The notes beneath the pieces were generated by a model. That model was not told where the DNA came from, ran no database searches, and saw nothing but the letters and a program-made list of their open reading frames with translations. From Pirellulaceae bacterium (GTDB lineage Bacteria > Planctomycetota > Planctomycetia > Pirellulales > Pirellulaceae), in the NCBI GenBank assembly GCA_965233625.1, contig OZ247499.1, positions 4,884,419 to 4,948,418 of the forward strand: DNA of 64,000 nt. The letters are read 5' to 3'. Of this stretch, positions 17,611 through 61,451 are shown one piece after another (the first letter of the stretch is position 1; each line of letters opens with the position of its first letter). The position numbers and the translations under genes were made by a program.

Positions 17611-17647
17611 AAGTCCGCGGCATAAGCCCCTTTGGGGCGTTGATATC

Positions 17648-17813
17648 TACACATGTTTTTCGCACCCCACATTAACCCGAAGCGCGAGCGAGGGGCGTTT
17701 GATGGAGTGCGAAAAACAAGGGGTTTTGGCGAACCGACTTCAAGTCGATAGTCTTCTTGACGGGCCATTCGCAGCAACGCGGGACGCCCCTCGCTCGCGC
17801 TTCGGGTTAGTGT
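17648..17813 (+). repeat. PRE copy A: ~145-bp element with perfect 26-bp terminal inverted repeats, plus the flanking 'ctacacatgtttttcgc' motif
   Basis: The left arm is taacccgaagcgcgagcgaggggcgt and the right arm is acgcccctcgctcgcgcttcgggtta. The inner sequence is cgtttgatggagtgcgaaaaacaaggggttttggcg.... Confidence 0.8.
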
Positions 17814-35489: not shown

Positions 35490-36760
<1,271 letters not shown>

Positions 36761-40147: not shown

Positions 40148-40410
40148 CCAGAAACTGCACCTTCATCTGATCGCCGGTTGGTCGCTCGCTTGCCAGCACT
40201 GCGCGCAGGTTGTTCCGTTATTGCGGCAAATTCGGCTTCTTACCACCAGGAACCATTACAGCGGTTAGGCCTGTTGCGCCGATAGAGAACAAACAACAGG
40301 CGCCTGGAGGTTCTACCTCTGCGCCTGTGTAAACCGTGGGGCATTTGCAAATACATGGCTCTGGCTGTCCGGCAGCGAGGGTCCAATACGCCAGACTGAA
40401 GGTTCAACCT

Positions 40411-41367: not shown

Positions 41368-41461
41368 GAGCAGCATCCGCCGTTAGCACCGCACACAAGA
41401 AGAACAGCACAGACCTGGTAGGCAGGACGCTTACCGTTTGATTATCGCATGGAGGCGACAG

Positions 41462-44400
41462 ATGAGCTGGCTCCGCAAAATTACACGGAAACTCTGGAAG
41501 AAGCCGGCAGGCAACGCCTGCTGCGATTCCAACGCCAACTCCACCGGGCGCGTCTGCGGGTTCGAAGAGATGGAACCGCGGCGGATGCTGGACGCAGACC
41601 CCATTCAGATCGGCGCCGTGTTCCTGGAAACAGACGACGGCGCCGACACACAGGCCGATGTCTTCGAGATCAGCTTTGAAGGCGGCGCCGCCGGGACGCA
41701 GCTGAAAGAGGTTTATATTGACCTGGATCAGACACCCGGTGGAACGCCCGGTATCTTGCAGGCGCCTGATCTGTTCTTCGACACGGCTGATACTGGTTTT
41801 GGCAGCCGCGAAGCGCATGCGTTTCAGGTCGTTAACGGCGCTGGTGACGGCATCGACAGCGTGCAGGCCGAAGTCGTCGACGGCACCTCGCAGTTGAAGC
41901 TGACGTTCGAAGGCTTCGACGCGGGTGAGAAATTCGTCTTCAGCATCGACGTCGATCACGCCAACCGCACGTTTATCAACGACAACTTCGACCTGCTCAA
42001 TACGGGCAACCCCAACGACCTGACGGCGGCTGAACTTTCCTACATCAACGACAACTCATTTGACTCGCTGGCGTCTGGGCGTGAGTTCGCCACGTCGCAG
42101 TTCCACGCTACCTTCGTGGCGCCCGGCTTTGCCGAGACAACCGGCATGGGCCGTTATGCCGACGATTACAACTTCAACGGAACCACGTTGCAGTTGACCG
42201 GCGATAGCGACACCAACCAGCCCAACCGCACCGACGGTGTGCACTTTCAGCTGGAGCAGGAAGAACTGCCCGTCACTATCAGCGGCCGCGTGTTCCACGA
42301 CCGCGACTTCAACCTGGTGCAGGACGGAACCGGCGCAGATGAAGATCACGGCATCGCCGGCGTTGAGCTATCTCTGCTGAAGCTGAACGAAACCACCAAC
42401 CAGTACGAAGACACCGGCCACACCGCCACCACCGACATCAACGGCGACTATCTGTTCGGCGAAGACCTGGGCCTGGGCTCTGGTACTTACAGTGTGGTCG
42501 AAACACAGCCGGGCGATTATCCGTACAGCGTGGGCGCCATTCCCGGTACGGTTGAAGGCGCCACGTCCGGCGTTGTGGGGCCGTTTGATAACAACGTGAT
42601 CGAACAGATCGTCATCCCGCTGGGCGGACAGGATTCGATCAACAACGATTTTGCCGAAGCCAAGCCGGTTGAGATCAGCGGCTTCGTCTATCACGACCGC
42701 AACGATAACGGCATCCGCGAAACGGGCGAAGAAGGTATCGAAGGCGTCACCATCCGCCTGCTGCCTATCAACACGGTTTCGCTGGAAACGCCGCGCGAGA
42801 TGCAGACCGGCGCCGATGGTTCTTACTCGTTTGAAGGTCTGGCCCCCGGCGAGTACGAAGTTTACGAGATCCAGCAGCCAACCGGTTACATCGACGGTAA
42901 AGACACCGCTGGCAAAATCGGATCGGACACAGTTGGCGTTGCTGGCAACGAACAGATCACCGAGATTTTCCTGCCCAGCGATTCTAAGGGTGTGGAATAC
43001 AATTTCGGTGAGATTCAGGAAGCACGCATCAGCGGCAACGTGCACCTTTCGACGCCCGAAGGCGAATGCTTTGAAGATAACCCCAGCACGCCTTACGTGC
43101 CTATTCCAGGCGTCCGGGTTGAGCTGACAAACCTTGACACCAATGAAGTCCGCCACACGTTTACCGATCAGAACGGCGATTACTCGTTCGACGGTCTGCC
43201 GCCGGGCAACTACAAGGTGGTTGAATTCACGCCGGCAGATGTGCTGGATGGCGGCGCCCGCGTCGGCGAAACGCCTGGTCCTGGCGATGGCATCCTGGAC
43301 CCGGCCGATCCTTCCAACATCATCACCAACATCACGCTAGAGCCCGGCGCCGTCGCCGTAAACTACGACTTCTGCGAGCATCTACCCGCCGAGATTGCCG
43401 GTAATGTCTACCACGACCGCAACAACAACGGCCTGCGTGAAACGGGTGAAGAAGGTATCGGCGGCGTCACCATTATTCTCCGCGACGCTGCGACCGGCGA
43501 CTTCATTTCCGACACCACCACGGAAACTGATGGCTCGTATAAGTTCGAGGGGTTAACCCGCGGCGATTACACGCTCGAAGAAGTGCACCCCACTGCCTAC
43601 ACGGACGGCAAAGATACGGCTGGCACCGTCGGCGGCACGACGCACGGCGTGGCGACGAATGATCTAATCAGCGACGTCCATCTCGACTTCGGCGAGGCGG
43701 GCATCGAGTACAACTTTGGCGAACGTCTGCTGGCGGAAATCAGCGGTAACGTCCACCTCTCGACACCCGATGGCGACTGCTTCGAAGATCTGCCGCAGGG
43801 CGAAGAATACCGCCCCATTGAAGGCGTGCTGATCCGGCTGATCAACGAAGACACCGGCGCCGAGATTACGCAGCTGACGGACTCTGAGGGCAACTACTCT
43901 TTCAAAGATCTTGACCCCGGCACTTACACCGTTGTCGAAACGACGCCGACGGGCTTGATCAACGGCGGGGCACGTGTTGGCGAAACACTGGGCGACGCCG
44001 ACGGCGTGCTCGACGCGCTGCGGCCGGGCGATGCGATCACCAGCATCGAACTAGAGCCCGGCGCCGTTGCCGTGAACTACGACTTCTGCGAGCACGAACC
44101 GGCTTCGATCAGCGGTCACGTGTACCACGATGCCAACAACGATGGCCTGTTCGACAAGATCAACGAAGATCCCATCCCAGGCGTCCGTGTGATTCTTCGC
44201 GATGGCAATGGCAACTTCATTGCTGAACGCACGACCGAAACCGACGGCAGCTACAGCTTTGAAGGCCTGGAAAAAGGCGAGTACATCCTCGAAGAAATTC
44301 ATCCCAATGCCTGGATCGATGGTAAAGACACCATCGGTACGGTCGACGCCATTCCTAACGGCTTTGCTGGCGATGATGAGTTCCTGGCCATCAATCTGCT

Positions 44401-47191
44401 CTACGGCGATGAAGGCGTTGAGTACAACTTTGGCGAACGGCTGCTCGGATCGCTCCGCGGTAATGTGCATCTATCCGACGGTCTGGGCGACTGTTTTGAT
44501 GACAACGTCATCTATCAGCCACTTCCCGGTGTTACCGTTCAGCTGATCGATCAGGCGACCGGAAACATCATCCGCACGACCACGACCGACAATCAGGGCG
44601 ACTACGAATTCGTTGACCTGGAAGCCGGCACCTACACGATTGTCGAAATCACACCGGCCCACCTGCTCGATGGCGGCGCCCGCGTAGGCAACATCGATAA
44701 CGTGGATGTGGGCGTGCTGGAGAACCCCAGCCGGATCAGCACCATCGTGCTGGACCACGGTGAAAACGGTGAAGATTACGACTTCTGCGAACACGAACCG
44801 GCCACCATCTCTGGCTTCGTCTATCACGATCGTGATAACGATGGCCTGAAAGAGACGGGCGAAGAAGGCATCAAAGACGCCATCGTGATTCTCCGCGATT
44901 CGGCGGGCACCGAAATAGACCGGCAGACGACCGGCGATAATGGCGAATACAGCTTCACCGGCCTGAAAGCAGGCGAGTACACACTCGAAGAAATTCAGCC
45001 TTCGGCCTATCTGGATGGCAAGGACACCACCGGCCAGATCGGCGGCAGCGACGTGGGCGTAGCTGGCAACGATGTGATCCAGCAGATTGTTCTGCCCGGC
45101 GGCTCTGACGGCGTGAACTATAACTTCGGCGAACTGCTACCGGCCAGCATCGAAGGTTACGTGCATTCGGACCCGGATCTGAACTGCATCTTCGATATCG
45201 ATGAAGACCCGATCGCAGGCGTGACAATTATTCTCCGCGATGCGAACACCGGCGACATCCTTGCCGATACGGTCACCGACGCCAACGGTCACTATAAGTT
45301 CGACAACCTCGGACCCGGCGAATTCACCATCGAGGAAATTCAGCCCGTAGATTACTTCCAGGGCGGTCAGGTTGTAGGTGTGACCGGCAACGGCGACGCG
45401 ACGGTCGACAACTTCCTGTCGTCCATCACGATCCAGTCGGGCGATGCTCTGGAGAATTACAACTTCTGCGAGATTCCTGCCGGCCGGATCTCTGGCTTCG
45501 TCTTTGTGGACGGCGCCCCGATTCTGACCGACACCGGCGCCCCGCCGAGCGACCTCACCGGCATCCGCGATGGCGTGCTGACCAACGACGATACCCGCAT
45601 CCAGGGCGTAACGCTGGAACTGCGTAACGGTATCACTGGCGACGTGATCAACGGCGAAGACCTGTTGCCCGGCGCCTACCCGAACGGCCCCGTGCAGACT
45701 CAGACCGACGCCAACGGCTTCTACGAGTTCACCGGGCTGCCGCCTGGCAGCTACGCCGTGTACGAAATTCAGCCGGTGCAGTACTTCGACGGTATCGATA
45801 CGCCGGGCACCACTTCCGGCATTGCCGTGAACCCGAATCAACCGCGTTCGGCAGCGGAACAACAATCTATCTTCCTGCTCTCGGAAGATCCTGGCGACGA
45901 CGCGATTATCCGCATCGCTCTGGGAATCGGCGACTCGTCCGAACTGAACAACTTCAGCGAGATCGAGACCACGGTCGGACCGCCGCCGCCGCCGCCACCT
46001 CCACCACCGCCACCACCACCACCGCCTCCACCACCACCGCCGCCACCGGGCACACCGCCCGATGTGCCGCAGGCGCCAACGGCTGCCACTCCGCCGTCGT
46101 CCGTGCTTGCTGTGGCAGGGGGAACCACCGTTTCGACCGTTCGCACCACTGGCGGGTTTGAGTTCAAACCTTACAGCTGGCACCTGAGCGTGATTAACGC
46201 AGGCACCCCGCGTGGTAACGGAGTAGAACTTGCAGAAACCGACACCTTCCAGCAGGCGGGGCACATCAGCCGCGATCGCTGGCAGGCGGAAGACCTGCAA
46301 GGCGGTTCGTTTGAACTGGTCACCGGCTACAACGATCCCGGCAGCCGCGAATTCTCAGAGAAACTGTTTGGCCTCGAAGGCGCCATTCCGGTTTCCGGAG
46401 ACTTCAACGGCGACGGAACCGATGAAGTTGGCGTCTTCCTCAACGGCGAGTGGTTCATTGATATCAATGGCAACGGACGTTGGGACTCAGAAGACCTATG
46501 GGCCAGCCTCGGCGGCGATAAGGACATACCTGTCACCGGCGACTGGGATGGCGATGGCAAAGACGACATCGGTATCTTCGGGCCGCAGTGGTCGGGCGAT
46601 CCGCACGCTATCGAACGCGAACCCGGTCTGCCCGATGCAGACAACGAGCGCAAGATGGTGGACCTCCGCGACGAACTGCTGCGGCGCAAGAACATGCCGC
46701 CACAGCGCGAAGACGCCACCAACGGCCACCGCGTGATGCAGCGTACGCCGGAAGGACGCGTACGGGCCGACGTTATCGACCACGTCTTCCGTTACGGTGA
46801 ACGGCACGATATGCCCGTGGCCGGTGACTGGAACGGCGACGGTATCCGCGACATCGGTATGTTCCGCGATGGCGTGTGGTATCTGGATGTCGATGGCGAC
46901 GGACGCATCAGCTACGCCGACAAACGGATCGAGTTCGGCGCCGCTGGCGACGTGCCTGTAACCGGCGACTGGAACGGCGACGGCATCGAAGATATCGGCG
47001 TCTACCGCAACGGCGTCTGGCATCTGGATGTCAACGGCAACCACGAGCTGGAAGCGGTCGATCGCGTGTTCGAGATGGGCGGCGCCGGCGATACGCCCAT
47101 CACCGGTGACTGGGACGGCGACGGTGTCGACGAACCAGGCATCTACCGCCACGGTCAACACCTGCGGCAAGCCCGTCGCGACGCCAGCTAA
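41462..47191 (+). CDS. giant secreted adhesin-like protein: ~10 SdrD-B/CnaB-like domains in tandem, a poly-Pro linker, and C-terminal FG-GAP/VCBS-like repeats
   Basis: The ATG at 41462 is preceded by 'ggagg'. The N-terminus carries FEEMEPRRMLDADP. Two alternating domain types are seen: ISGFVYHDRNDNGIRETGEEGIEGVTIRLL...GSYSFEGLAPGEY, and ISGNVHLSTPEGECFED...GVRVELTNLDT...GDYSFDGLPPGNY. A run of about 23 consecutive Pro follows. Then come five GDWNGDGxxDIGxF repeats. Confidence 0.85.
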   Translation: MSWLRKITRKLWKKPAGNACCDSNANSTGRVCGFEEMEPRRMLDADPIQIGAVFLETDDGADTQADVFEISFEGGAAGTQLKEVYIDLDQTPGGTPGILQAPDLFFDTADTGFGSREAHAFQVVNGAGDGIDSVQAEVVDGTSQLKLTFEGFDAGEKFVFSIDVDHANRTFINDNFDLLNTGNPNDLTAAELSYINDNSFDSLASGREFATSQFHATFVAPGFAETTGMGRYADDYNFNGTTLQLTGDSDTNQPNRTDGVHFQLEQEELPVTISGRVFHDRDFNLVQDGTGADEDHGIAGVELSLLKLNETTNQYEDTGHTATTDINGDYLFGEDLGLGSGTYSVVETQPGDYPYSVGAIPGTVEGATSGVVGPFDNNVIEQIVIPLGGQDSINNDFAEAKPVEISGFVYHDRNDNGIRETGEEGIEGVTIRLLPINTVSLETPREMQTGADGSYSFEGLAPGEYEVYEIQQPTGYIDGKDTAGKIGSDTVGVAGNEQITEIFLPSDSKGVEYNFGEIQEARISGNVHLSTPEGECFEDNPSTPYVPIPGVRVELTNLDTNEVRHTFTDQNGDYSFDGLPPGNYKVVEFTPADVLDGGARVGETPGPGDGILDPADPSNIITNITLEPGAVAVNYDFCEHLPAEIAGNVYHDRNNNGLRETGEEGIGGVTIILRDAATGDFISDTTTETDGSYKFEGLTRGDYTLEEVHPTAYTDGKDTAGTVGGTTHGVATNDLISDVHLDFGEAGIEYNFGERLLAEISGNVHLSTPDGDCFEDLPQGEEYRPIEGVLIRLINEDTGAEITQLTDSEGNYSFKDLDPGTYTVVETTPTGLINGGARVGETLGDADGVLDALRPGDAITSIELEPGAVAVNYDFCEHEPASISGHVYHDANNDGLFDKINEDPIPGVRVILRDGNGNFIAERTTETDGSYSFEGLEKGEYILEEIHPNAWIDGKDTIGTVDAIPNGFAGDDEFLAINLLYGDEGVEYNFGERLLGSLRGNVHLSDGLGDCFDDNVIYQPLPGVTVQLIDQATGNIIRTTTTDNQGDYEFVDLEAGTYTIVEITPAHLLDGGARVGNIDNVDVGVLENPSRISTIVLDHGENGEDYDFCEHEPATISGFVYHDRDNDGLKETGEEGIKDAIVILRDSAGTEIDRQTTGDNGEYSFTGLKAGEYTLEEIQPSAYLDGKDTTGQIGGSDVGVAGNDVIQQIVLPGGSDGVNYNFGELLPASIEGYVHSDPDLNCIFDIDEDPIAGVTIILRDANTGDILADTVTDANGHYKFDNLGPGEFTIEEIQPVDYFQGGQVVGVTGNGDATVDNFLSSITIQSGDALENYNFCEIPAGRISGFVFVDGAPILTDTGAPPSDLTGIRDGVLTNDDTRIQGVTLELRNGITGDVINGEDLLPGAYPNGPVQTQTDANGFYEFTGLPPGSYAVYEIQPVQYFDGIDTPGTTSGIAVNPNQPRSAAEQQSIFLLSEDPGDDAIIRIALGIGDSSELNNFSEIETTVGPPPPPPPPPPPPPPPPPPPPPPPGTPPDVPQAPTAATPPSSVLAVAGGTTVSTVRTTGGFEFKPYSWHLSVINAGTPRGNGVELAETDTFQQAGHISRDRWQAEDLQGGSFELVTGYNDPGSREFSEKLFGLEGAIPVSGDFNGDGTDEVGVFLNGEWFIDINGNGRWDSEDLWASLGGDKDIPVTGDWDGDGKDDIGIFGPQWSGDPHAIEREPGLPDADNERKMVDLRDELLRRKNMPPQREDATNGHRVMQRTPEGRVRADVIDHVFRYGERHDMPVAGDWNGDGIRDIGMFRDGVWYLDVDGDGRISYADKRIEFGAAGDVPVTGDWNGDGIEDIGVYRNGVWHLDVNGNHELEAVDRVFEMGGAGDTPITGDWDGDGVDEPGIYRHGQHLRQARRDAS
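42250..45500 (+). repeat. in-frame tandem coding repeats, period ~715 bp (pairs of CnaB-like domains), 4-5 units
   Basis: The recurring peptide 'E(I/P)(A/S)(E/S)ISG(F/N/H)VYHD(R/A)N(D/N)NG' starts near 42661, 43381, 44098 and 44803. Confidence 0.6.
45979..46047 (+). repeat. poly-proline codon tract (ccg/cca/cct)n
   Basis: The DNA reads ccgccgccgccgccacctccaccaccgccaccaccaccaccgcctccaccaccaccgccgccaccg, which encodes the continuous Pro run of about 23 residues. Confidence 0.85.
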
Positions 47192-49738: not shown

Positions 49739-50647
49739 CTAAACCGCGGTGGCTGCTTCTTCGTAGCAGACAACCAGTGTGCGGCTTGGCACCGCCAGTT
49801 TCAGCACTGGGGCGAAGTCTTCGTAGCTGGTGTCAACGTGTGACAGTAGCTCTCTAAGCCCAGGGCCGTCCGATGTGTTGATGCGGTTGTAAACGCTTTC
49901 AAACTCTTCGCGTTCGCTCCACATCGGATCGTGCACGGCGGGCAGCAAGGCCGAAAGGCTGACCGAAAGCTCTGGTACGGGCGGCTGCGATGCGGCCAGC
50001 AGGTCGTCCAGGTTCGGGTGCGCTTCGATCAGCACGGCGAATGCCTCGGGCAGACTCCAGCTGCGCGCCATCACGCCAGCTGCGTCAGCATGCGTCCAAC
50101 CGAAGCGTTCCATCTCTAGTTCCGACAGGCGCCGGCGGCCAGCGTCGCGGCCACTCAGCAGCTCTGTGTATTCTTCCGGCATCTCTTTGGCCAGCATCGG
50201 CACGGCCATGTCCTGCAGCAAAGCAGCGGCAAACAGATCTTCGGCGTCTTTCAGTCCCAGCTGTTTGCCCATCGCGCGGGCGAACAGGCCGCGGCGTAGC
50301 GAATCCTGCCACAGGCTCTTCAGTTCAAACGGGCCGCACTTCGGATTGGGCATCAGACTGAATACCGCGCTCCACAAGGCGAAGTTCTTGATCGTACGGA
50401 TGCCAACCAGCGTGATCGCCAGCTTCACACTCGAGATTTCCCGCGAGAAGCCGAAGTAAGAAGAGTTCACAAACTTCAGCACCTGACCGGTCAGGCCCGG
50501 GTCTGCTTCAATCGGTACAGCGAATTCCTGCGGGCCGTTATTGGGATCTTGCGATAGCTCTAACAGGCGGATCGCGCTTTGCGGCAGCGCGGGCAGTTGA
50601 GCATTGGCAAGGACTTCATTGAGCTTCTGTGTTGCGGCTGCATCCAT
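49739..50647 (-). CDS. HDOD domain (HD-related output domain) signalling protein
   Basis: LPALPQSAIRLLELSQDPNNGPQEFAVPIEADPGLTGQVLKFVNSSYFG is the canonical HDOD N-terminus. Confidence 0.8.
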   Translation of the reverse strand: MDAAATQKLNEVLANAQLPALPQSAIRLLELSQDPNNGPQEFAVPIEADPGLTGQVLKFVNSSYFGFSREISSVKLAITLVGIRTIKNFALWSAVFSLMPNPKCGPFELKSLWQDSLRRGLFARAMGKQLGLKDAEDLFAAALLQDMAVPMLAKEMPEEYTELLSGRDAGRRRLSELEMERFGWTHADAAGVMARSWSLPEAFAVLIEAHPNLDDLLAASQPPVPELSVSLSALLPAVHDPMWSEREEFESVYNRINTSDGPGLRELLSHVDTSYEDFAPVLKLAVPSRTLVVCYEEAATAV

Positions 50648-51227: not shown

Positions 51228-54200
51228 ATGCAACAGCCGTCACCCACTGAAAACAATCCGGGCGCCTCTTTCCCTCTCCAGGTAAGCACGGAACAATACC
51301 CATTCTTGCGCGACCATCAGGTGCAAGAGGCAACGCTACTTCCGGGCGCCTTGTATGTGTCAGTAGCGTCGGAGGCGTTTATCGCTGCCAGGCAGGATAC
51401 GAACAACGCTGAGGTGTTGCAGTTAACGCAAGTGAACTTCCTGCGGCCACGATCACTCAGCGGCACGGAACAGGTAACGCTGCAGGCCAACGATGTGCAG
51501 CCGCAACCCAACGCACCGCTGTGCCAGGGTTCTGTCACTGACGGTGAAAACACCCTGGTCGAATTTTACGCAGCCGCGCTACCGGCGCCTTCTATCAACC
51601 GCCTGCCGGCGCCTGCTATTTTAGAACAGGATGTCTCGTCCGCCTTTTACCAGCGGCTTCAGGAAGTAGGCAACCAGTACGGCGCGGCCTTTCAACCGCT
51701 GCGCAACTTACAGACCAAACCGGAGCAGGCTGCTGCCACGGTGATGGTTCCTGCCCCTGCGGCGCCGTTACGAATCCACCCGGTGCTGATCGACGCCCTG
51801 GTGCAGACGCTTGCGGCCTGCGTGGCCGAACCCGAGGGCCCCTATCTGCTATCCGCCGTCGCGAACATCGAATTAGATCTACGGGCGTTGCAAAGAGCGT
51901 TGTCCACCGGCGGCACGTTGCATAGCATTGCGGCCCGGAAGAGCAGCCACGAAGACGCGTCGCAGATAACGGGCGACGTGCAGCTGCTTGCCGCCAACGG
52001 TGAAGTGCTGATCGCCATGCAGGATGTCTCGCTGGTCTACCCGCAGGCAAAGCCACCAGAGCAGCGCATTGGCATTGCGGCCACGTTTACCGCCGAACCA
52101 CTGGCCGACGCCGTTGCATTCTGGGGCGCGCACTTTCAGGCGCCGTTGCAGGCTTCCTTCGCCCCGTACAACCAGGTGCATCAGCAACTGCTCGACCCGG
52201 GCAGCGTGCTTGCCCACCCGCAGAACGCGGCCAACGTCCTTCTGTTCTGCTGGCAGGACTGGGTCCAGAAAGCCTTCCGTCCGCTTACCGCCGACGAGAC
52301 GGCCCGGCAGCGTGTTGAAGCAGAACACGCCACGAAGAAGCTACCCGCGGGTATTCAGGTCGCCCATCTCAATCCGTACGAAACCGATTACGTCTTCAAC
52401 GAGATCTGGGTCGACCGCTGTTATTTGAAGCACGGCGTCTCGCTCGAGGATTGCCAGTGTGTGCTCGACATCGGCGCCAACATCGGACTGTTTTCGCTAT
52501 TCGTAAAACAGCACGCGCCGGATGCGAAAGTTTACTCGTTCGAACCATCGCCCCGTGCCCATGCGGCCCTTACCGCCAACGCGGAAATGTATGGCGGCGG
52601 TTCTATCACGCCGTTGCCGTGCGGCGCCGGAGAGCACGATGGCCACGCGACCTTCACCTTTTACGAGGCATCTTCCGTCTTCTCCAGCTTCTACGCTGAC
52701 GCGGGCGAAGATCACGCGGCGGTCGAAGCCATCGTTGCCAACATGGTGCGGACATCGCTGGGCGAAGACGCGGCACAGGACGCCATCGACGCGGCCGTTG
52801 CCAGTTTTATGAACGGCCGCATGAACAGCCAGACACTCCAGTGCGAGCTACGCAATGTTTCCAGCATCATCCGTCAGCACAACATCGACCGCATCGATCT
52901 GCTGAAGCTGGATGCGGAGAAAAGCGAACTGCCCGTGCTACGTGGCATCGCCGATGAACACTGGCCCATGATCCGGCAGGTTGTCGTAGAAGTTCACGAC
53001 CGCGAAGGCCCTGTGCTGGCGGAAGTGCAAAGCATTCTCGAAAGCCGTGGCTTTGAAGTGGCGGTGGAAGAAGAAACCTTGCTGCATGGCTCCGGGCTAT
53101 TCAACGTTTTTGCGATCCGCCCTGGGCAGAACAAAACCGCTGCCCAGAAGCAGCAAGACGCGGCAGATGTTTCCGCCCGTGTGGAAGAATTCGTCGCCAA
53201 CCTGCAAGCTTTCGCCTCGACCAATATCACGCCCTTGCTGCTAATGAGTTGCCCGCCGCATGGCGAAGAGGGAAGCAGCGCCGACCATCAGCAGGTAGAA
53301 AGGCAGATCGCCGCCGCGCTGCAACCTTACCGCCATATTCAATTGCTTACGTCGCAGGAGATCAGCCAGCTTTACCCGGTTGCGGAAATTCACGACGCGC
53401 AAGCCAATGCCCTGGGACATGTGCCTTATACCAGTGGCTACTTCACTGCGCTGGGCGCCTGCGTCGCCCGTCACTGGCTGAAGCATCGCGCACCGGCGCC
53501 CAAGGTGATCGTCCTGGACTGTGACCAGACCTTGTGGGGCGGCGTCTGTGGCGAAGACGGCGCCAGCGGCGTCACGCTCGATGAACATCGCATCGCTTTC
53601 CAGCAGCGGATGGTGGAGCTGATGAACCAGGGGCTGCTGCTGGCCGTCTGCAGTAAGAACACGCCGGCGGATGTCGAGGCCGTGTTCAACGGGCGTGAGA
53701 TGCCGCTCAAACGCGAACACTTCACCGGCTGGAAAGTGAACTGGAATGCGAAGTCGCAGAACCTGCACGAACTTGCCGCGGAGCTGAACCTCGGCCTGGA
53801 TAGCTTCATCTTCATCGACGACAACCCGCTGGAATGCGCCGACGTAGCTGCCAACTGCCCCGGCGTGCTGGTGATGCCATGCCCGGCGGAAAGCCGCGCA
53901 ATCCTACCCATGCTGGACCACGTCTGGTCGCTCGACCTTCAATCCAGCAGTGACGAAGACAGCCGTCGCACGCAGATGTACCGCGACGAAGCCAGCCGGC
54001 AGCAGGCCCGCGCGGCGGCGCCGACGCTCAAGTCGTTCATCGACAGCCTGCAATTACAGGTCCGCATCGCGCCCGTCACTCCCGCTCAGTTACCGCGTGC
54101 GGCGCAACTTACGCAACGCACCAATCAATTCAACGCATCCACCATCCGCCGCAGCGAAGCGGAACTGCAACAGCTTCTGGACAACGGCCACAGCGTGCAC

Positions 54201-55001
54201 ATGGTTCACGTGCAGGACCGCTTCGGCGATTACGGCGACACCGGCCTGTTGATCTTCCAGATAGCGGCCGGCGTGCTGCATGTAGACACGCTGCTTCTTA
54301 GCTGCCGCGTTCTGGGCCGCGGCGTAGAGCATCAACTGCTCGCGCACCTGGGACGCATCGCCATGGAACAAGGCGCCACGCGGATTGAAATCCCGTTCGA
54401 GCCGACAGAGCGGAACCAACCAGCCCGCGACTTCCTCGCTTCGCATTGCATTGGCCAGCCGTTTACCACCAGCGCAGAATCCGCCGCCAGCGTGCAGTAC
54501 AACCCGCAAGCAGCCGCCACGGCGACGGCCGCACCACTTCCACAACAACAACCCTCACGGCGTCAGTTGTTCAACGAACCGCTTGCGCAGATCGCCACAG
54601 AGTTGCAGACCGTTGAGCAGATCAGCCAGGCGACGCAGGCAACGCAGCGGCGCCCGCGGCCCGCCGAATTACCCGCCGAGACGCCGCCTGCCAACGACCT
54701 GGAACGGAACATCGCTGCCATCTGGTGCGAACTGTTGAAGCTCGAAAGCGTCGGCGTGTGCGACGCGTTTAAAGATGTAGGCGGCACCTCGCTGCTGGCT
54801 GTTCAGTTGATCGCCCGGCTGAAGTCGTCGCTGGATATCGACCTGCCTGTTGTGCAACTTTTCGAACGCCCCACCATCCGCCAGATCGCTGCCTACCTCA
54901 GCAACTCCGCTGACAGCCAGCCTGCGGAAGACGCCGCCGCCACAGCCCGCGACCGCGCCAGCCGCCGTAAGGCCCGCGCCGCATCCCGCCGCCGCGGGTA
55001 A
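51228..55001 (+). CDS. PKS loading protein: PKS-type dehydratase (DH) - FkbM-family methyltransferase - FkbH-like (HAD phosphatase-type glyceryl transferase) - ACP
   Basis: DH motif: LRDHQVQEATLLPGALYV (HxxxGxxxxP). FkbM motif: VLDIGANIGLFSLFV. FkbH motif: VIVLDCDQTLWGG (DxDxT) with FIFIDDNPLE. Carrier protein: AFKDVGGTSLLAVQLIARL. The first ATG is at 51228; the reported ORF start at 51156 is a TTG. Confidence 0.8.
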   Translation: MQQPSPTENNPGASFPLQVSTEQYPFLRDHQVQEATLLPGALYVSVASEAFIAARQDTNNAEVLQLTQVNFLRPRSLSGTEQVTLQANDVQPQPNAPLCQGSVTDGENTLVEFYAAALPAPSINRLPAPAILEQDVSSAFYQRLQEVGNQYGAAFQPLRNLQTKPEQAAATVMVPAPAAPLRIHPVLIDALVQTLAACVAEPEGPYLLSAVANIELDLRALQRALSTGGTLHSIAARKSSHEDASQITGDVQLLAANGEVLIAMQDVSLVYPQAKPPEQRIGIAATFTAEPLADAVAFWGAHFQAPLQASFAPYNQVHQQLLDPGSVLAHPQNAANVLLFCWQDWVQKAFRPLTADETARQRVEAEHATKKLPAGIQVAHLNPYETDYVFNEIWVDRCYLKHGVSLEDCQCVLDIGANIGLFSLFVKQHAPDAKVYSFEPSPRAHAALTANAEMYGGGSITPLPCGAGEHDGHATFTFYEASSVFSSFYADAGEDHAAVEAIVANMVRTSLGEDAAQDAIDAAVASFMNGRMNSQTLQCELRNVSSIIRQHNIDRIDLLKLDAEKSELPVLRGIADEHWPMIRQVVVEVHDREGPVLAEVQSILESRGFEVAVEEETLLHGSGLFNVFAIRPGQNKTAAQKQQDAADVSARVEEFVANLQAFASTNITPLLLMSCPPHGEEGSSADHQQVERQIAAALQPYRHIQLLTSQEISQLYPVAEIHDAQANALGHVPYTSGYFTALGACVARHWLKHRAPAPKVIVLDCDQTLWGGVCGEDGASGVTLDEHRIAFQQRMVELMNQGLLLAVCSKNTPADVEAVFNGREMPLKREHFTGWKVNWNAKSQNLHELAAELNLGLDSFIFIDDNPLECADVAANCPGVLVMPCPAESRAILPMLDHVWSLDLQSSSDEDSRRTQMYRDEASRQQARAAAPTLKSFIDSLQLQVRIAPVTPAQLPRAAQLTQRTNQFNASTIRRSEAELQQLLDNGHSVHMVHVQDRFGDYGDTGLLIFQIAAGVLHVDTLLLSCRVLGRGVEHQLLAHLGRIAMEQGATRIEIPFEPTERNQPARDFLASHCIGQPFTTSAESAASVQYNPQAAATATAAPLPQQQPSRRQLFNEPLAQIATELQTVEQISQATQATQRRPRPAELPAETPPANDLERNIAAIWCELLKLESVGVCDAFKDVGGTSLLAVQLIARLKSSLDIDLPVVQLFERPTIRQIAAYLSNSADSQPAEDAAATARDRASRRKARAASRRRG

Positions 55002-55049
55002 ATCGCAGCATGTCTGTAAGCTTTCCCACTGCTTTCAACCAGAACAACT

Positions 55050-58000
55050 ATGTATCAGCCAGGTGAATTTGATATTGCCATCATCGGACTCGCCGGGAAG
55101 TTTCCCGGTGCGGATTCCGTAGATGCGTACTGGCGGAATCTGGTGGAAGGCCGCGAATGCATCCGCTTCTTTTCCGATGAAGAACTCGACCGCGCCGGCG
55201 TGCCGCGCGAGATTTATCAGCGGCCCGGATACGTCAAAGCGGCGCCGGTGATCGAAGGACCCGGCCTGTTCGACGCCCGCTTCTTTGGCTACTCGCAGCG
55301 CGATGCAGAGCTGATGGACCCGCAGCATCGCGTGTTCCTGCAATGCTGTTATCACGCGCTGGAAAACGCGGGCCATACGGCTGATGGCTTCGACGGGCGA
55401 GTCGGTGTTTACGCCGGCTCTGCGATGAACACTTATTTTCTCTACGCGAATCTTGCCGAGCGGTTTGCCGAAGATTATCTGCCGACGCTGCTTGCCAGTG
55501 ACAAAGATTTTCTTTCGACACGTGTCTCGTATCAGTTGAACCTGACGGGACCCAGCCTGACCATTCAAACCGCTTGTTCAACTTCGCTAGTGGCGGTTCA
55601 CACCGCGTGTCAGAGCCTGATTAACGAAGAATGCGATATGGCGATGGCCGGTGGTGTTTCCATCCGCGTGCCGCACATCGCAGGGCATCAGGCAGAGGAG
55701 GGCAGCGTGTTCTCGCCCGATGGCCATTGCCGCCCGTTCGATGCGAGCGCCGCCGGCACCATCTTTGGCAGCGGCGCCGGCGTGGTGGTGCTGAAACGCG
55801 CGATAGATGCCGTGGCTGATGGTGACACAATTATGGCAGTCATCAAAGGCTCAGCCGTGAACAACGACGGCAACCGCAAGTCCGGCTACACGGCGCCCGG
55901 TGTCGAGATGCAGTCGCGGGCCGCGATTGAAGCCTATGCCGCCGCCGGGATTGAACCAGCGATGATCTCGTACATCGAAGCGCACGGCACCGGCACGTAT
56001 CTGGGCGACCCGATTGAAGTCGCCGCGCTTACTTCGGCCTTCCGCACGCAGACGCAGCAGCAACAGTTCTGCCGCATTGGCTCGGTGAAATCCAACATCG
56101 GCCACCTCGACGCCGCTGCCGGTGTCGCGGGGCTGATCAAGACCGCACTCGCCCTGAAGCACCGCACGCTGCCGCCCACGCTGCACTACACCACGCCCAA
56201 TCCGCAGATCGACTTCGCCACGTCGCCGTTCATCGTCAACCACCAGCTAACACCGTGGGCAACATCCAGTGCCGCGGATGATATCCGTTACGCTGCGGTC
56301 AATTCATTAGGCATCGGCGGCACGAATGCGCATCTGGTGCTGGAAGAAGGCCCGCGTGTGGAAGCTGCCTCACCAGGCGCAGAGCGGCCGCAACTGCTGG
56401 TTCTTTCCGCCAGAACAGAAACAGCGCTCGACGCCACGGCTGCCAAGGTTGTGTCACACCTGGTGGAAGACGGGACAACGTCGCTTGCCGATGCAGCCTT
56501 TACGTTACAGACCGGCCGCAACCGCATGGAGCACCGCCGCAGCGTTGTGGTGACGGACCGGGACGATGTTGAACTGCTCGCGGGTCAGCCCCGCGCCGCC
56601 AACCGGCTGGACAACCCGGACGTGATCTTCATGTTCCCCGGCCAGGGCGCCCAGTACGCTGGCATGGCCCGCGGCTTGTACGAACAAGACGCAGAATTCA
56701 AACGGCAGATCGATACGTTTCACGATCAGTTACTGGCCGAAAACAACATCGACTTACGCGGCGTTCTGTTCCCTGCCGCGGGTGAAGAACAGCAAGCTGC
56801 CGAATTGCTGCGGCGGACGCATGTAACGCAGCCCGCGTTGTTCGCCATTGAATACGCGCTGGCGCGGTTGTTGATGCGGTGGGGCGTTCAGCCCGCGGGC
56901 GTTACCGGGCACAGCGTTGGTGAATATGCGGCGGCGTGTATTGCTGGAGTGATGCAGCCGGCGGATGCGCTACGGCTGGTCGCGCTGCGCGGCGCCATGA
57001 TCAGCGAACTGCCTGAGGGCAAGATGCTGGCTGTTGCGTTACCGGGTGAAGCGGTGCAAGAGCGGCTGGACGCGCGGCTGGAACTTGCGGCCATGAACAG
57101 CCCCGGCGCCAGCGTCGTGGCAGGCGACGCTGCGATGGTGGACGCGTTTGAAGCGGAACTAAGCAACGCCGGCGTGCCGTGCCAGGTTTTGCGGACCTCG
57201 CATGCGTTTCACTCCGGCATGATGGCGCCGGTCCTAGAAGACTTCCGCGCGGCGGTTGAAAAGGTGCAACTCCGCCCCGCGCAACTGCCTATTTATTCCA
57301 CTGTCACCGGCGCCACGGCTGATCCCGCGGCCTACGCGCAGCCGCAGTTCTGGGTGGATAACATCCGGCAGCCCGTGCGGTTTTCAGAGGCCGCGGCGGA
57401 ACTTCTGAAACAACCCAACCGCGTGCTGCTTGAGACCGGCCCCGGCCAGACGCTCAGCGGTTTCATCCGCGAACAACCGGGCCACAACCAGCATCATGTG
57501 ATATGCACGTCGCTGCGCCATCCGCGCGAAGACGCTGACGATTACGCATTTCTACTGCGGACCCTCGGCAAGCTATGGGAGGCGGGTGTCACACCCGATT
57601 GGCAGAACATTCACGGAGCCAACCGGCAACGTGTGCCCCTGCCGGGATATGTTTTTGACAACGAGAATTACTGGCTCGCGCGCAGCACAACCGTAGGCAG
57701 CACTTCAACGACTACGACGCCGGCGGAACCATCTGAACCCGCCGCGCGGCCACAGATCCCGCGCCGGCCTGTCCCGCAGTGGCTCTACAAACCGAAGTGG
57801 CAAGCCGCTGAAACCGGTGCGTCTGACGAACCTTCGACCCTCATCAACCGCAGTACGGACAGCACCTGGCTGGTGTTTGGCGGGCGTGAATGGCTGCCGC
57901 AGGAAACGGCGAATGTTGTGACGGTTAAGCCGGGTGAGATGTTCCAGCAGATCAGCCGTCACGAATATCGCATCAACATCCATGCGGCGGAAGACTACCG

Positions 58001-60326
58001 GAAACTGCTTTCGTCGCTGGAAGAAAGTGACATACTTCCGTCACATGTACTGCATACCTGGATGACCGGGGAGGATGTGGAAGACGCACAGGAACTGCAA
58101 CGTGGGCTGAATAGCCTGACTTTCTTTACGGCAGCTACCGGCAATGTCTGCCCGCTTCATCAGCTTCAACTCTTCACGATTACTCACAAGGCGATTCCCG
58201 CCACACAGGATGACATCGTCCTTCCCGCCCGCGCTGCCGCAATCGCCTGTTGCAAGCTGATTCCGCAGGAGCACCCTGGCGTTGCGTGCCGTCACATCGA
58301 CCTGCCGGATGACATAAACGCGTCACACCGTTCTTACGCGTTGCAAAAGATGCTCGCACAAGCTGCAGCCCTTGATGGCGGATCATACGCCTACCGTGAC
58401 GGAAAGCTGCTGACTGAATGTTTTGAACCGTGCGAAGCTCCATCCGCCGGGGTAACAAAGCGTCTACGCGATGGCGACACGTATCTTCTGTTTGGCGGTC
58501 TGGGCGGTATTGGTCTGACTCTTGCCCGTGAGATTGCCCGGCAGGTGCGTGCGAATCTGGTGCTGGTTAGCCGTGGACCGTTACCGTTGCGGGACGAAGC
58601 TTCGCCGCGTGACTTGAAGAAACTCAAGATCATAGATCAGATCCGCGCCGCCGGGTGTCAGGTTCTGACAGTTCAGGGCGACGTCAGCCGCAGCGATTCT
58701 ATTGCTCAAGTGCTACAACAGACGGCTGACCATTTTGGCGCGGTGCACGGGGTGATTCATGCGGCGGGCGTGAGTGGGCCGCTGCGGCCGCTGCAGCAGA
58801 GTTCGCAGGAGGATATCGCGGCCTGCATGCCAGCAAAATTGCACGGTGTAGCGCTGCTGGAAGAATTGCTGGCGGATCAGCCGCTGCGGTTCATTCTTGG
58901 ATGTTCAACCATTGGCGCCACGTTGCATCATCACCGGATTGGTGAGCTGAGTTATCTGGCCGCCAACATGGCGCTGGACGCGTTTCCGTTTCATCAACGC
59001 ACGCGTGGCGATGGCGTCTTCCGGCAGACGATTCAGTGGGATGAGTGGAGCGAAGCGGGAATGGCGGCGGACCTTGCCGCTTCGGGTGGTAACCCGTCGT
59101 CTCCGCTGTTTGATATCGAAGACACGATTTCCCCGGAAGAAGGCGCCAAGGCGTTTGCGGCGGCGCTGGCGACGGATGAGCCGCGCGTTATTGTTTCGGT
59201 GCATGACCTGATAAAGCGTCTTGCCACCGCGGACGCGTCAGAGAGCCATACGGAAGCATCTCAGCAGGCCGCAATTTCTGCTTCAGCGGCGAGTGACACT
59301 ATTGCGTCACTGACGCAGATCTGGTCGGAACTGCTGGGAGCCAGAGATATCCGCCCGGGTGATGACTTCTTTGAACTGGGCGGTAGTTCCTTGCTGGCGG
59401 TGCGGATGAATTCGCAGATTGCCGACAGACTTGGCAAGAAGCTGCCCGTCGGTTCGATCCTTGAACTGCGGACGATTACGCGGCTTGCGGAATTGATCGA
59501 TGGCGGGCAGAAGAAATCGCATCCTTCGCTGGTGGCGATTCAACCCAAGGGCGCCCGCCCGCCGTTGTTTTTGATGCATGCCGCGGGCGGCAACGTGATG
59601 TTCTACCGGCAGCTTGCCGCACACCTTCCTTCGGACCAACCGGTTTATGGGCTTCAATCGCAGGCACTGATCGATGGCGAAGCCACCTTCCGCAGCATCG
59701 AAGAAATGGCCAGCGGGTACGCAGCAGCGATGCTCGCGATGCAACCAGATGGACCCTATCTAACCGGCGGATATTGCATGGGCGGCACCTTGGCGCTGGA
59801 GGTCGCACAGCAGCTGCGGCAGCGTGGTAAAGAAGTGGCCGTCGTAGCGATGTTTGAAACTTACAACTGGGAGAAGTGTAAGCGCCGCAAGCCGATGAGC
59901 GGCGGACGCTTCTGGCTTGAGAAGGTTTACTTCGCGCTTCGCAACGTGTTTGCAGCAGGTAGCGGCGCCTCGAAATTTGTGCGGGAGAAACTAAGTGTCG
60001 TCGGTGCGCGGCGGAAGGTGTGGCGGGGAGAACTCCAGCGTAAAGTGCATTCCGCGCAGGCCAGCGATCAGCAGATGCTGGCGCAGCTCTGGGAGAATAA
60101 CGACCGGGCCGCCATGCAATATCGCCCGCAGCCTTACGATCTGCCTGTGACGATCTTCCGTCCGGAGGTGCGGCACGCTGTGTTCCGCGATTGTGAGTTC
60201 GACCAGGTCAACTGCCACATCGAAACGCTGCCCTGCTTCCCGGCCGCTATGATGCTGGAGCCGTTTGTCGCAGAACTCGCCCGCCGGTTGAACCAGCGCA
60301 TCGAGCAGGCGATTCCGACAGCGTGA
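55050..60326 (+). CDS. type I polyketide synthase module KS-AT-KR-ACP-TE, with a Cys-type thioesterase
   Basis: KS: TACSTSLVAVHTACQSL, EAHGTGT, NIGHL. AT: GHSVGEYAAAC. KR: LLFGGLGGIGLTLAREIA ... SYLAANMALDAF. ACP: FFELGGSSLLAVRM. TE: GYCMGGTLALE, where Cys replaces Ser in GxSxG. The ATG at 55050 lies 49 nt after the upstream stop. Confidence 0.9.
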   Translation: MYQPGEFDIAIIGLAGKFPGADSVDAYWRNLVEGRECIRFFSDEELDRAGVPREIYQRPGYVKAAPVIEGPGLFDARFFGYSQRDAELMDPQHRVFLQCCYHALENAGHTADGFDGRVGVYAGSAMNTYFLYANLAERFAEDYLPTLLASDKDFLSTRVSYQLNLTGPSLTIQTACSTSLVAVHTACQSLINEECDMAMAGGVSIRVPHIAGHQAEEGSVFSPDGHCRPFDASAAGTIFGSGAGVVVLKRAIDAVADGDTIMAVIKGSAVNNDGNRKSGYTAPGVEMQSRAAIEAYAAAGIEPAMISYIEAHGTGTYLGDPIEVAALTSAFRTQTQQQQFCRIGSVKSNIGHLDAAAGVAGLIKTALALKHRTLPPTLHYTTPNPQIDFATSPFIVNHQLTPWATSSAADDIRYAAVNSLGIGGTNAHLVLEEGPRVEAASPGAERPQLLVLSARTETALDATAAKVVSHLVEDGTTSLADAAFTLQTGRNRMEHRRSVVVTDRDDVELLAGQPRAANRLDNPDVIFMFPGQGAQYAGMARGLYEQDAEFKRQIDTFHDQLLAENNIDLRGVLFPAAGEEQQAAELLRRTHVTQPALFAIEYALARLLMRWGVQPAGVTGHSVGEYAAACIAGVMQPADALRLVALRGAMISELPEGKMLAVALPGEAVQERLDARLELAAMNSPGASVVAGDAAMVDAFEAELSNAGVPCQVLRTSHAFHSGMMAPVLEDFRAAVEKVQLRPAQLPIYSTVTGATADPAAYAQPQFWVDNIRQPVRFSEAAAELLKQPNRVLLETGPGQTLSGFIREQPGHNQHHVICTSLRHPREDADDYAFLLRTLGKLWEAGVTPDWQNIHGANRQRVPLPGYVFDNENYWLARSTTVGSTSTTTTPAEPSEPAARPQIPRRPVPQWLYKPKWQAAETGASDEPSTLINRSTDSTWLVFGGREWLPQETANVVTVKPGEMFQQISRHEYRINIHAAEDYRKLLSSLEESDILPSHVLHTWMTGEDVEDAQELQRGLNSLTFFTAATGNVCPLHQLQLFTITHKAIPATQDDIVLPARAAAIACCKLIPQEHPGVACRHIDLPDDINASHRSYALQKMLAQAAALDGGSYAYRDGKLLTECFEPCEAPSAGVTKRLRDGDTYLLFGGLGGIGLTLAREIARQVRANLVLVSRGPLPLRDEASPRDLKKLKIIDQIRAAGCQVLTVQGDVSRSDSIAQVLQQTADHFGAVHGVIHAAGVSGPLRPLQQSSQEDIAACMPAKLHGVALLEELLADQPLRFILGCSTIGATLHHHRIGELSYLAANMALDAFPFHQRTRGDGVFRQTIQWDEWSEAGMAADLAASGGNPSSPLFDIEDTISPEEGAKAFAAALATDEPRVIVSVHDLIKRLATADASESHTEASQQAAISASAASDTIASLTQIWSELLGARDIRPGDDFFELGGSSLLAVRMNSQIADRLGKKLPVGSILELRTITRLAELIDGGQKKSHPSLVAIQPKGARPPLFLMHAAGGNVMFYRQLAAHLPSDQPVYGLQSQALIDGEATFRSIEEMASGYAAAMLAMQPDGPYLTGGYCMGGTLALEVAQQLRQRGKEVAVVAMFETYNWEKCKRRKPMSGGRFWLEKVYFALRNVFAAGSGASKFVREKLSVVGARRKVWRGELQRKVHSAQASDQQMLAQLWENNDRAAMQYRPQPYDLPVTIFRPEVRHAVFRDCEFDQVNCHIETLPCFPAAMMLEPFVAELARRLNQRIEQAIPTA

Positions 60327-60394
60327 CAGCGGGTAAATCGCTGTGCTAAACGCTTCAAGCGGGGCGGTCGTGTTGAGATTGGCTGGATGCGGAG

Positions 60395-60434
60395 CCCCCT
60401 CACCCTAACCCTCTCCCCGGAGGGGCGAGGGGAC
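60395..60434. repeat. ~40-bp 'cccctcaccctaaccctctccccggaggggcgagggga' element, copy 3
   Basis: Read directly from the sequence, 70 nt after the PKS stop. The spurious ORF 60387.. translates it as PLTLTLSPEGRGD. Confidence 0.7.
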
Positions 60435-60569
60435 GAGATGCTGCGCCTGGTTAACGTCGCAACATTGAGTTCATCGTTGCGGACCAGCAATTGTTTGCTT
60501 CGTAACACTGGCTCTTATACACTCGCCAGCCAGGGTAACGTGTTCATTACATCATTTGACGAGGCGGAT

Positions 60570-61451
60570 ATGACGACGCGACTGCTTGCCTGCTTGTGCC
60601 TTATTCTTGTCACTGCTGCCACCGCCTACGGTGAAGAGCCGGCTGGCGGTGCGTTGAAAATCGCCTGGAAGGACAATTACCTTTCGATCTTTGGCGACTT
60701 CCCCGGCAAAGAAATGCGGACGCATTACCTGGAGGCTTACTGCCGCCCCGGCTCGACGGACCGGGACTGGGGCGAAACGGTGATTAAGCACCGCGCTGAA
60801 CTTCTTTCTGCCAGCGAAGATGGTCGCGTGATTAAACTTCGCGATACGCTCGCCGACGGCGTGATTGTGGAGCACGTGATTACGGCGGGCGATGGCGAAG
60901 TGGACTTCCGCCTGACGGCGACGAATCCGACCAGCAAGGCCTCGCAGGCGCATTGGGCGCAGCCTTGCATCCGTGTTGATAAATTCACCGGCGCCGGTCG
61001 GGAAGACGCCCGTGTTCTGGTGCCGAAGTACGCCCGGCAGTGCTTCATTTTTCTCGATGGCGAACTCACGCGGCTGCCGACGCGCCCGTGGGCGGATAAG
61101 GCGCGCTACATTCCCGGGCAGGTTTACCGGCCCGCCCATGTGCCTGCTGATGATGTGAACCCGCGGCCGGTCAGTTCACTGACGCCCTCCAACGGGCTCA
61201 CAGGCGCGTTTACTGCCGACGGTAAACAGTTGATGGCGGTCGTCTGGGAGCCTTACCAGGAACTGTTTCAGGGCGTCATCGCCTGCATACACAGCGATTT
61301 CCGCCTGGGCGGTTTGAAGCCCGGTGAGACCAAGAAGATCCGCGGCAAGATTTATATCATGCCGGCGGATATCAAAGCGTTGGTCAAACGCTACGAAGCG
61401 GACTTCCCGGAGCAGGTAAAACAAGCTGCTGCGAGCCGGGATGATTCGTAG
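60570..61451 (+). CDS. secreted hypothetical protein (293 aa)
   Basis: The ATG at 60570 is preceded by 'gagg'. The signal peptide is MTTRLLACLCLILVTAATAYG. Confidence 0.6.
   Translation: MTTRLLACLCLILVTAATAYGEEPAGGALKIAWKDNYLSIFGDFPGKEMRTHYLEAYCRPGSTDRDWGETVIKHRAELLSASEDGRVIKLRDTLADGVIVEHVITAGDGEVDFRLTATNPTSKASQAHWAQPCIRVDKFTGAGREDARVLVPKYARQCFIFLDGELTRLPTRPWADKARYIPGQVYRPAHVPADDVNPRPVSSLTPSNGLTGAFTADGKQLMAVVWEPYQELFQGVIACIHSDFRLGGLKPGETKKIRGKIYIMPADIKALVKRYEADFPEQVKQAAASRDDS

Follow-up and report, generated by a model that had tools for sequence, protein, structure and literature searches.

We analysed a window of 64,000 nucleotides of genomic DNA from a Pirellulaceae bacterium (assembly GCA_965233625.1, contig OZ247499.1, positions 4,884,419 to 4,948,418), which carries a compact two-gene polyketide synthase (PKS) locus built around an FkbH-type loading protein. 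The two open reading frames (ORFs) lie on the + strand at 51228..55001 and 55050..60326, are separated by 48 bp, and are unbroken across 9 kb. A preliminary description had placed both genes at exactly these positions, and had read the first as a fusion of dehydratase (DH), FkbM-type methyltransferase, FkbH and acyl carrier protein (ACP) and the second as a single module of ketosynthase (KS), acyltransferase (AT), ketoreductase (KR), ACP and thioesterase (TE). Searches with Pfam and NCBIfam profiles agree with it on gene 1, and those with Pfam profiles on gene 2. The domains are as follows.

51228..55001, +, gene 1, a free-standing loader of DH, FkbM-type methyltransferase, FkbH and carrier; 1257 aa from ATG
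51261..52034, +, DH domain (double hot-dog), aa 12-269; PKS_DH_N 1.4e-11, PS-DH 1.5e-22
52080..52427, +, conserved segment ahead of the methyltransferase, aa ~285-400; block ATFTAEP...FAPYNQV.QQLLDP
52467..53057, +, FkbM-family S-adenosylmethionine (SAM)-dependent methyltransferase, aa 414-610; PF05050 (Methyltransf_21) 1.7e-15
53493..54449, +, FkbH domain (HAD-IIIC phosphatase plus C-terminal transferase part), aa ~756-1074; TIGR01686 7.1e-88
54711..54899, +, carrier (an ACP resembling a peptidyl carrier protein, PCP), aa 1162-1224, Ser in GGTS; PP-binding 2.3e-13
55050..60326, +, gene 2, a single module with its AT in cis, KS-AT-KR-ACP-TE; 1758 aa
55071..56189, +, KS, aa 8-380; PF00109 2.9e-71, PF02801 3.6e-44
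56625..57566, +, AT, aa 526-839; PF00698 6e-53
57777..59051, +, KR (structural plus catalytic subdomains), aa ~910-1334; NF047870 KR prefix, PF21394, PF08659 5.6e-34
59310..59498, +, module carrier, aa 1421-1483, Ser in GGSS; PP-binding 6.7e-13
59526..60326, +, non-canonical TE-fold domain, aa 1493-1758; PF00975 8.3e-27

The family assignments of gene 1 are clear: it scores 294.8 bits against a cut-off of 146.65 for FkbH (TIGR01686), 58.9 against 35.75 for the HAD-IIIC phosphatase family (TIGR01681) and 92.3 against 37.7 for FkbM (TIGR01444), so that the two families on which the preliminary description had staked its reading are both recovered above their cut-offs. In an alignment of 16 diverse homologues, Asp189 of the DH is invariant and His30 and Gln193 are nearly so (the two DH motifs read HQVQEATLLP, which holds the His, and HPVLIDALVQ). 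Also invariant are the SAM motif VLDIGANIG, the FkbH residues Asp764, Asp766 and Thr768 of the DxDxT signature (DCDQT) and Cys1026 (SCRV), and the carrier Ser1188. This near-complete conservation of catalytic residues in diverse members indicates that all four activities are under constraint. Among solved structures, the DH matches the DH domains of DEBS, PpsC and the borrelidin synthase, the HAD part of FkbH matches PDB 3slr (8.9e-23), and the best matches of the carrier are carrier proteins of nonribosomal peptide synthetases (NRPSs). Two segments flank the methyltransferase (aa ~285-400 and ~640-755) and are jointly conserved, the former also in cyanobacterial methyltransferase-FkbH loaders that have no DH, and the FkbH-like 3slr chain has ~220 residues ahead of its HAD domain. 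From this we infer that the methyltransferase is inserted in the N-terminal domain of FkbH, of which aa ~285-400 would be the first half.

Where gene 1 starts is ambiguous: the candidates are the ATG at 51228 and a TTG in frame with it at 51156, and the database copy of the protein (NCBI, ENA) is 1231 aa long, as if translation began 26 codons downstream of the ATG, immediately ahead of the His motif of the DH. Either of the two earlier starts is favoured, because the later one removes residues that align with homologues. At its other end the protein closes with an Arg-rich tail (54900..55001, RASRRKARAASRRRG), and a basic tail is conserved across the family; it may mediate docking to the KS protein, at whose N-terminus no docking domain is recognisable.

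The public protein collection contains the exact 1758-aa product of gene 2, and both proteins of the pair are singletons there; the layout of gene 2 is repeated in the orthologues of the closest relative, a metagenome contig (L081), and of a locus from Chloroflexota (L042). The Cys-His-His triad of the KS is intact, as the preliminary description had anticipated, and its motifs TACSTS, EAHGTGT and SNIGHL are kept in six orthologues. The AT motifs GHSVG and HAFH are likewise kept in six of six. HAFH at this position is a malonyl signature, so the specificity call which had been left to these residues comes out as malonyl-CoA. The KR contains GGLGGIG as well as the catalytic Lys, Ser and Tyr.

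The terminal domain departs from the pattern of a thioesterase. Of the 226 positions of the PF00975 profile only 2-107 are matched, and alignments with orthologues and relatives place a Cys (GGYCMGG) at the nucleophile position in place of the Ser of GxSxG, a Glu (FET) at the acid position in place of Asp, and a Pro at the GxH site (LPCFPAAM) where the catalytic His is expected. The domain thus lacks a Ser(or Cys)-Asp-His triad, while a paralogous TE encoded elsewhere in the window (3579..6230) shows GTSYGG and IPGRHSQ in the same alignment columns. In a profile alignment, the best solved relative is the NRPS AB3403 (PDB 4zxh, E 3.5e-58), whose TE shares with the window domain the Cys nucleophile (GGWCFGG) and the PCP-TE didomain fold but retains the His (LPGDHSS) and the Asp where the window has Pro and Glu. 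A confident AlphaFold model (predicted local confidence, pLDDT, 85.5) has the PCP-TE fold, with AB3403, EntF, NocB and the Pks13 TE as its nearest structural neighbours. We sampled the subfamily through the 134 nearest representatives of clusters at 50% identity that align over the whole domain, in proteins of ~260 to ~4,500 aa. In 102 of these 134 the Cys is present and the canonical His absent, the usual motif being P-V-Y-P-A-G-M, which argues that the His-less TE is a large constrained subfamily and not a product of decay. We know of no characterised member of it. Release by a TE, which the preliminary description had taken for granted, should therefore not be assumed, since the Cys for Ser and the missing catalytic His are traits of the subfamily as a whole.

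The closest free-standing relatives of the domain are ACP-TE proteins encoded within acidobacterial exopolysaccharide loci, together with the exosortase EpsH, glycosyltransferases, a FemAB-like acyltransferase, an AMP-binding enzyme and a phosphopantetheinyl transferase (PPTase). Four such loci of acidobacterial type (L083, L084, L091 and L092) hold a recurring set of one or two His-less ACP-TE proteins, a PPTase, a FemAB-like acyltransferase, a thiamine pyrophosphate enzyme, an AMP-binding enzyme, a homoserine O-succinyltransferase-like protein, an aminotransferase, a flavin monooxygenase and an ATP-grasp enzyme, with exosortase EpsH and glycosyltransferases nearby.

The domain order of gene 1 is that of a loading module already described. 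The fusion of FkbH, FkbM and DH, on which the preliminary description had based its prediction, is a known type of loading module and not an unusual one, and full-length relatives of its free-standing form number in the hundreds. In the oocydin PKS, OocJ1 is built like the loaders of PKSs with starters derived from 1,3-bisphosphoglycerate, and the first module of the phormidolide PKS, which shares its domain set with OocJ1, is credited with a 2-methoxyacrylyl starter; haterumalide B and biselide B keep a methoxyvinyl group (Meoded et al. 2018, PMC6174933). The phormidolide-type compound leptolyngbyalide is made by a PKS locus of Leptolyngbya sp. PCC 7375 (L032), and in our domain scan the first protein of that locus opens with DH, FkbM, FkbH, ACP and KS; gene 1 aligns with it at 34% identity over residues 139-1224 (602 bits, BLASTP). 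The phormidolide, leptolyngbyalide and OocJ1 loaders have the same order of DH, FkbM-type methyltransferase, FkbH and carrier as gene 1, and the DH His and Asp, the SAM motif, DxDxT and the Cys are common to gene 1 and the phormidolide/leptolyngbyalide-type loader. The differences concern what surrounds this unit. Whereas the phormidolide-type loader is the first module of a multimodular PKS and feeds a long assembly line with ATs in trans, gene 1 encodes a protein of its own (~1,260 aa) in which no further module follows the carrier, and its partner is one module with its own AT. As machinery for beta-branching, halogenation or macrocycle formation is absent here, the predicted product has 6 carbons against ~40 for the phormidolide type.

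A second group of relatives bears on the function of the DH. Cyanobacterial loci from Nostoc, Symploca and Komarekiella encode loaders without a DH, which match gene 1 only from residue ~278 onward, at 40-43% identity, and consist of methyltransferase, FkbH and carrier, the layout of the reported O-methylated glycerate loader of banyaside/suomilide. As in gene 1, the FkbM-type methyltransferase of these NRPS loaders is probably embedded in the FkbH N-terminal region and is followed by the HAD/FkbH part and a PCP-like carrier; unlike gene 1, they have no DH, keep the glycerate skeleton and feed NRPS condensation domains rather than a KS. That the DH-less relatives match the architecture of an O-methylglycerate loader supports an action of the gene 1 DH on the glyceryl unit.

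Other FkbH systems fit less well. The BryA loading module of the bryostatin PKS (DH-KR-FkbH-ACP) supplies a D-lactate starter, and resembles gene 1 in placing domains that modify the carrier-bound glyceryl unit N-terminal to FkbH. It has a KR where gene 1 has the methyltransferase, and its outcome is a lactyl group and not an enol methyl ether. We rejected a lactate starter here because the BryA-type route needs a KR in the loader, and gene 1 has none. In the pathways to methoxymalonyl-ACP (FkbG-K/OzmB-type) and to tetronates and butenolides, FkbH is predicted to load glyceryl from 1,3-bisphosphoglycerate, as here, although the unit serves there as an extender or chain terminator and not as a starter. 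A methoxymalonyl-ACP pathway was rejected since Pfam searches of the window ORFs revealed neither a dehydrogenase of the FkbK or FkbI type nor a discrete ACP of that kind, and an acyl-CoA dehydrogenase from a related locus, used as a tblastn query, found nothing in the window. A tetronate or butenolide pathway was rejected as well, the window having no FabH-like condensing enzyme and no KS besides that of gene 2.

The reading that we favour, and regard as probable from the domain content and its homologies, is that the locus encodes an intact minimal type I PKS which joins a 2-methoxyacrylyl starter to one malonyl extension, reduces the beta-keto group and releases the product. As predicted from family membership, FkbH would transfer a glyceryl unit from 1,3-bisphosphoglycerate to the carrier of its own protein. 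The FkbM-type methyltransferase would, by homology, methylate the 2-hydroxyl of the carrier-bound glyceryl, and the N-terminal DH, judged by its similarity to the modules credited with this starter, would eliminate the 3-hydroxyl to give 2-methoxyacrylyl-S-carrier. The KS of gene 2 would then accept the starter, the HAFH-type AT would add one malonate and the KR would reduce the beta-keto group, so that the chain on the gene 2 ACP is expected to be 3-hydroxy-4-methoxypent-4-enoyl-S-ACP. From there it would pass to the Cys in the TE-fold domain at the end of gene 2, followed by hydrolysis or by transfer to an acceptor. Hydrolysis would yield a C6 acid (C6H10O4) with an acid-labile enol ether, which would readily hydrolyse to 3-hydroxy-4-oxopentanoate. 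The preliminary description had offered a methoxyacryloyl or a lactyl starter plus one ketide; homology to the phormidolide/OocJ1 modules and the leptolyngbyalide domain order give the methoxyacryloyl starter the best support, and the lactyl starter is not favoured because the loading module has no KR.

The gene pair has a wide distribution. A homologue search of a large protein collection with gene 1 (E <= 1e-10) returned 467 proteins, the nearest of them 64% identical (L081); the best 120 are almost all 1,240-1,340 aa long with the same set of Pfam domains and are 37-43% identical to gene 1. In a distribution scan limited to one genome per species, gene 1 relatives occur at at least 542 species-level loci, in Verrucomicrobiota, Acidobacteriota, Chloroflexota, Ignavibacteriota and Nitrospirota as well as in Beta- and Gammaproteobacteria, Rhodothermaceae and cyanobacteria, and the partner is mostly a KS-AT-KR-ACP protein. 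Across distant relatives the pair itself is the sole part shared. The KS gene directly adjoins the gene 1 homologue in eight loci (L001, L004, L034, L042, L052, L081, L082 and L093), and in ~18 others the KS-AT-KR-ACP gene lies 4-5 kb downstream of the loader. Termination takes several forms: a fused TE in the window, L081 and L042, an added NRPS module in L082, L001 and L093, and a TE fused straight onto the loader in L024 and in several proteins among the gene 1 homologues. As judged from these comparisons of sequence and gene order, gene 1 with KS-AT-KR-ACP is a conserved cassette, of which the window holds the simplest complete form.

The loci with an insert between the two genes (L003, L005, L006, L010-L013, L017, L018, L020, L025, L027, L029, L038, L043, L046 and others) belong to Verrucomicrobiota, Acidobacteriota, Ignavibacteriota and Betaproteobacteria. 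In L005 the insert (13777..17789) holds genes for an acyl-CoA dehydrogenase, an AMP-binding enzyme and a hypothetical protein, and upstream lie those for an NRPS, a P450 and a PPTase. A further locus (L094, 10001..13720) carries a gene 1 homologue of 41% identity that has no KS partner and lies near genes for a DinB-like protein, a PIG-L deacetylase and a pyridoxal decarboxylase, a setting which suggests that the methoxyacrylyl or glyceryl unit is used differently there.

In three other lineages the pair lies among genes of glycan biosynthesis. It is contiguous with Bac_transf, GFO/IDH/MocA, DegT, FemAB-like and GT4 genes in L042 (Chloroflexota) and with GFO/IDH/MocA and DegT genes in L004 (Rhodothermaceae), and it follows GT2, GT4, MBOAT and Wzy_C genes in L093, so its product is possibly an acyl donor and not a free acid. 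Neither in the window nor in L081 are there glycan, amino-sugar or acyltransferase genes beside the pair, and for this locus transfer to an acceptor is accordingly the minority reading.

Several observations weigh against the favoured reading or leave parts of it loosely defined. Apart from the Gly of HxxxGxxxxP in the DH, the catalytic motifs of DH, methyltransferase, FkbH, KS, AT, KR and both carriers are intact; that Gly is replaced by Glu, at a position that is variable across the family. Methylation may come before or after dehydration, and the stereochemical type of the KR is not assignable because neither the window protein nor that of L081 has an LDD motif or an A-type Trp. No PPTase was found among the proteins encoded in the window. 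The 2-methoxyacrylyl assignment of the reference modules is itself a proposal from product structures and not a reconstituted activity (PMC6174933). Simple hydrolytic release is doubtful, as the TE has no canonical His and has Glu for Asp.

The last of these points leads to a possible but less probable alternative, in which the assembly is the same and the terminal domain is a transacylase that hands the Cys-bound 3-hydroxy-4-methoxypent-4-enoyl chain to a glycan, at an amino sugar or hydroxyl, or to a lipid. The domain lacks the general-base His, and this absence is a conserved trait of the subfamily (102 of 134); the closest free-standing relatives of the domain belong to exopolysaccharide loci of Acidobacteria, the pair is contiguous with glycan genes in L042, L004 and L093, and among the structural neighbours is the TE of Pks13, an enzyme that transfers an acyl chain to trehalose. 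On the other hand, glycan, amino-sugar and acyltransferase genes are absent from beside the pair in both the window and L081, adjacency in three loci is a lead and not a statistic, in the glycan-linked loci L093 and L082 an extra NRPS module brings a TE of its own, which implies a different chemistry there, and a thiolate nucleophile may hydrolyse its ester with the help of another base. A more far-reaching version, which we put forward only tentatively and hold to be somewhat less likely still, is that the pair is the minimal form of a widespread acyl-donor system in which the His-less Cys TE-fold domain installs the glycolysis-derived acyl group, a masked alpha-hydroxy ketone, on an acceptor in the cell envelope, for example an amino sugar.

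Two other explanations question the starter and the locus as a whole. The DH could be idle on the starter, which would then be 2-O-methylglyceryl or a pyruvoyl- or lactyl-like unit, with the DH either inactive or dehydrating the gene 2 product in trans to a dienoate. The off-consensus motif (HxxxE for HxxxG), the position of the DH upstream of the loading domain, which is not colinear, and the presence in gene 2 of a KR with no DH of its own are in keeping with this idea. We nevertheless consider it improbable, because the DH His and Asp are conserved family-wide, the dehydrated 2-methoxyacrylyl starter is attributed to homologous loaders that have the same N-terminal DH, relatives from which the DH is missing have the architecture of the reported O-methylglycerate loader, and a lactyl starter would need a loader KR of the BryA type. 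It is more improbable again, indeed very unlikely, that the locus makes no product and is a relic, silent or in decay. No PPTase or regulator adjoins the pair, the TE lacks one residue of the triad, and a promoter scan, whose models do not extend to planctomycete promoters, gave no candidate site; yet both ORFs are unbroken over 9 kb, all other catalytic motifs are intact, the pair is 64-74% identical in a related organism, and the odd TE residues are a conserved signature of the subfamily and not random decay. The minimal PKS with a 2-methoxyacrylyl starter thus remains the reading that we prefer.

The flanks of the pair, and other genes noted in the window, are listed below.

2723..3589, +, NMT1/THI5-like protein; its ORF overlaps the start of the next gene
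3579..6230, +, NRPS-like stand-alone adenylation-PCP-TE protein (A-PCP-TE), 883 aa; TE motifs GTSYGG and IPGRHSQ
22746..25265, -, WD40 plus caspase-domain (Peptidase_C14) protein
35526..36683, +, IS110-family transposase, between a sulfite/nitrite reductase gene and a flotillin-like FloA gene
40336..41367, +, WD40 propeller protein
41438..47191, +, 1917-aa protein with about ten repeats of SdrD_B, CarboxypepD_reg and SpaA type
49739..50647, -, HDOD gene (1.5e-51), the upstream flank of the pair
60387..61451, +, hypothetical protein with no Pfam match, the downstream flank of the pair

A Pfam scan of the neighbours bears out the borders that the preliminary description had drawn, an HDOD gene and a hypothetical one, and its statement that no further PKS genes lie near the pair also stands. 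Beyond the downstream hypothetical gene follow a citrate synthase and then a RimK-like ATP-grasp gene. In the closest relative (L081), in which gene 1 is 64% and the ACP-TE region 74% identical, the upstream genes differ from those of the window and encode a ribosome recycling factor and a PtsI-like protein. The downstream hypothetical gene was examined as a third gene of the pathway and rejected: it is present in L081 (86% identical) and absent from all other related loci. Its family comprises >4,000 proteins, typically ~283 aa long and 65-75% identical to the window copy, and the homologues examined stand in varied contexts with no PKS neighbours, one of them beside IF3/ThrS and an ABC transporter. 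The A-PCP-TE gene at 3579..6230 is the nearest carrier-protein enzyme; as a pathway partner it was likewise rejected, lying ~45 kb upstream of the pair and having a canonical Ser/His TE. Homologues of the accessory genes from related loci are not encoded in the window, no regulator adjoins the pair, and a scan for promoters and terminators, whose models do not cover planctomycete promoters, gave no signal above shuffled sequences. The preliminary description had called the pathway self-contained. The two-gene boundary on which this rests holds; the term itself is only partly apt, in view of the lack of a PPTase in the window and of the glycan-gene context in three other lineages. The repeat protein at 41438..47191 and the two WD40 proteins appear unrelated to the PKS. 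The planctomycete-specific domains PSCyt1, PSCyt2 and PSD1 occur elsewhere in the window and by themselves assign the DNA to that phylum.

While the DH-FkbM-FkbH-carrier fusion is already known as a type of loading module, the searchable literature on FkbH with FkbM, planctomycetes and methoxyacrylyl yielded no description of the two-gene system, nor of a free-standing loader paired with a single cis-AT module, of the wide spread of the cassette or of the His-less Cys TE, and it assigns no product to the cassette. If the preferred reading is correct, the locus would be about the smallest assembly line that leads from a glycolytic intermediate to an enol-ether polyketide, with two proteins, one extension and a C6 product. 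It would also be well suited to reconstituting the loading of 2-methoxyacrylyl, so far deduced only from the product structures of large trans-AT PKSs. The His-less TE subfamily poses a separate question, that of chain release versus transfer, and if the acyl-donor reading were true, this large subfamily would consist of transacylases with a mechanism other than that of the triad. Since the cassette is found in hundreds of mostly uncultured species, one characterised member would annotate many orphan clusters.

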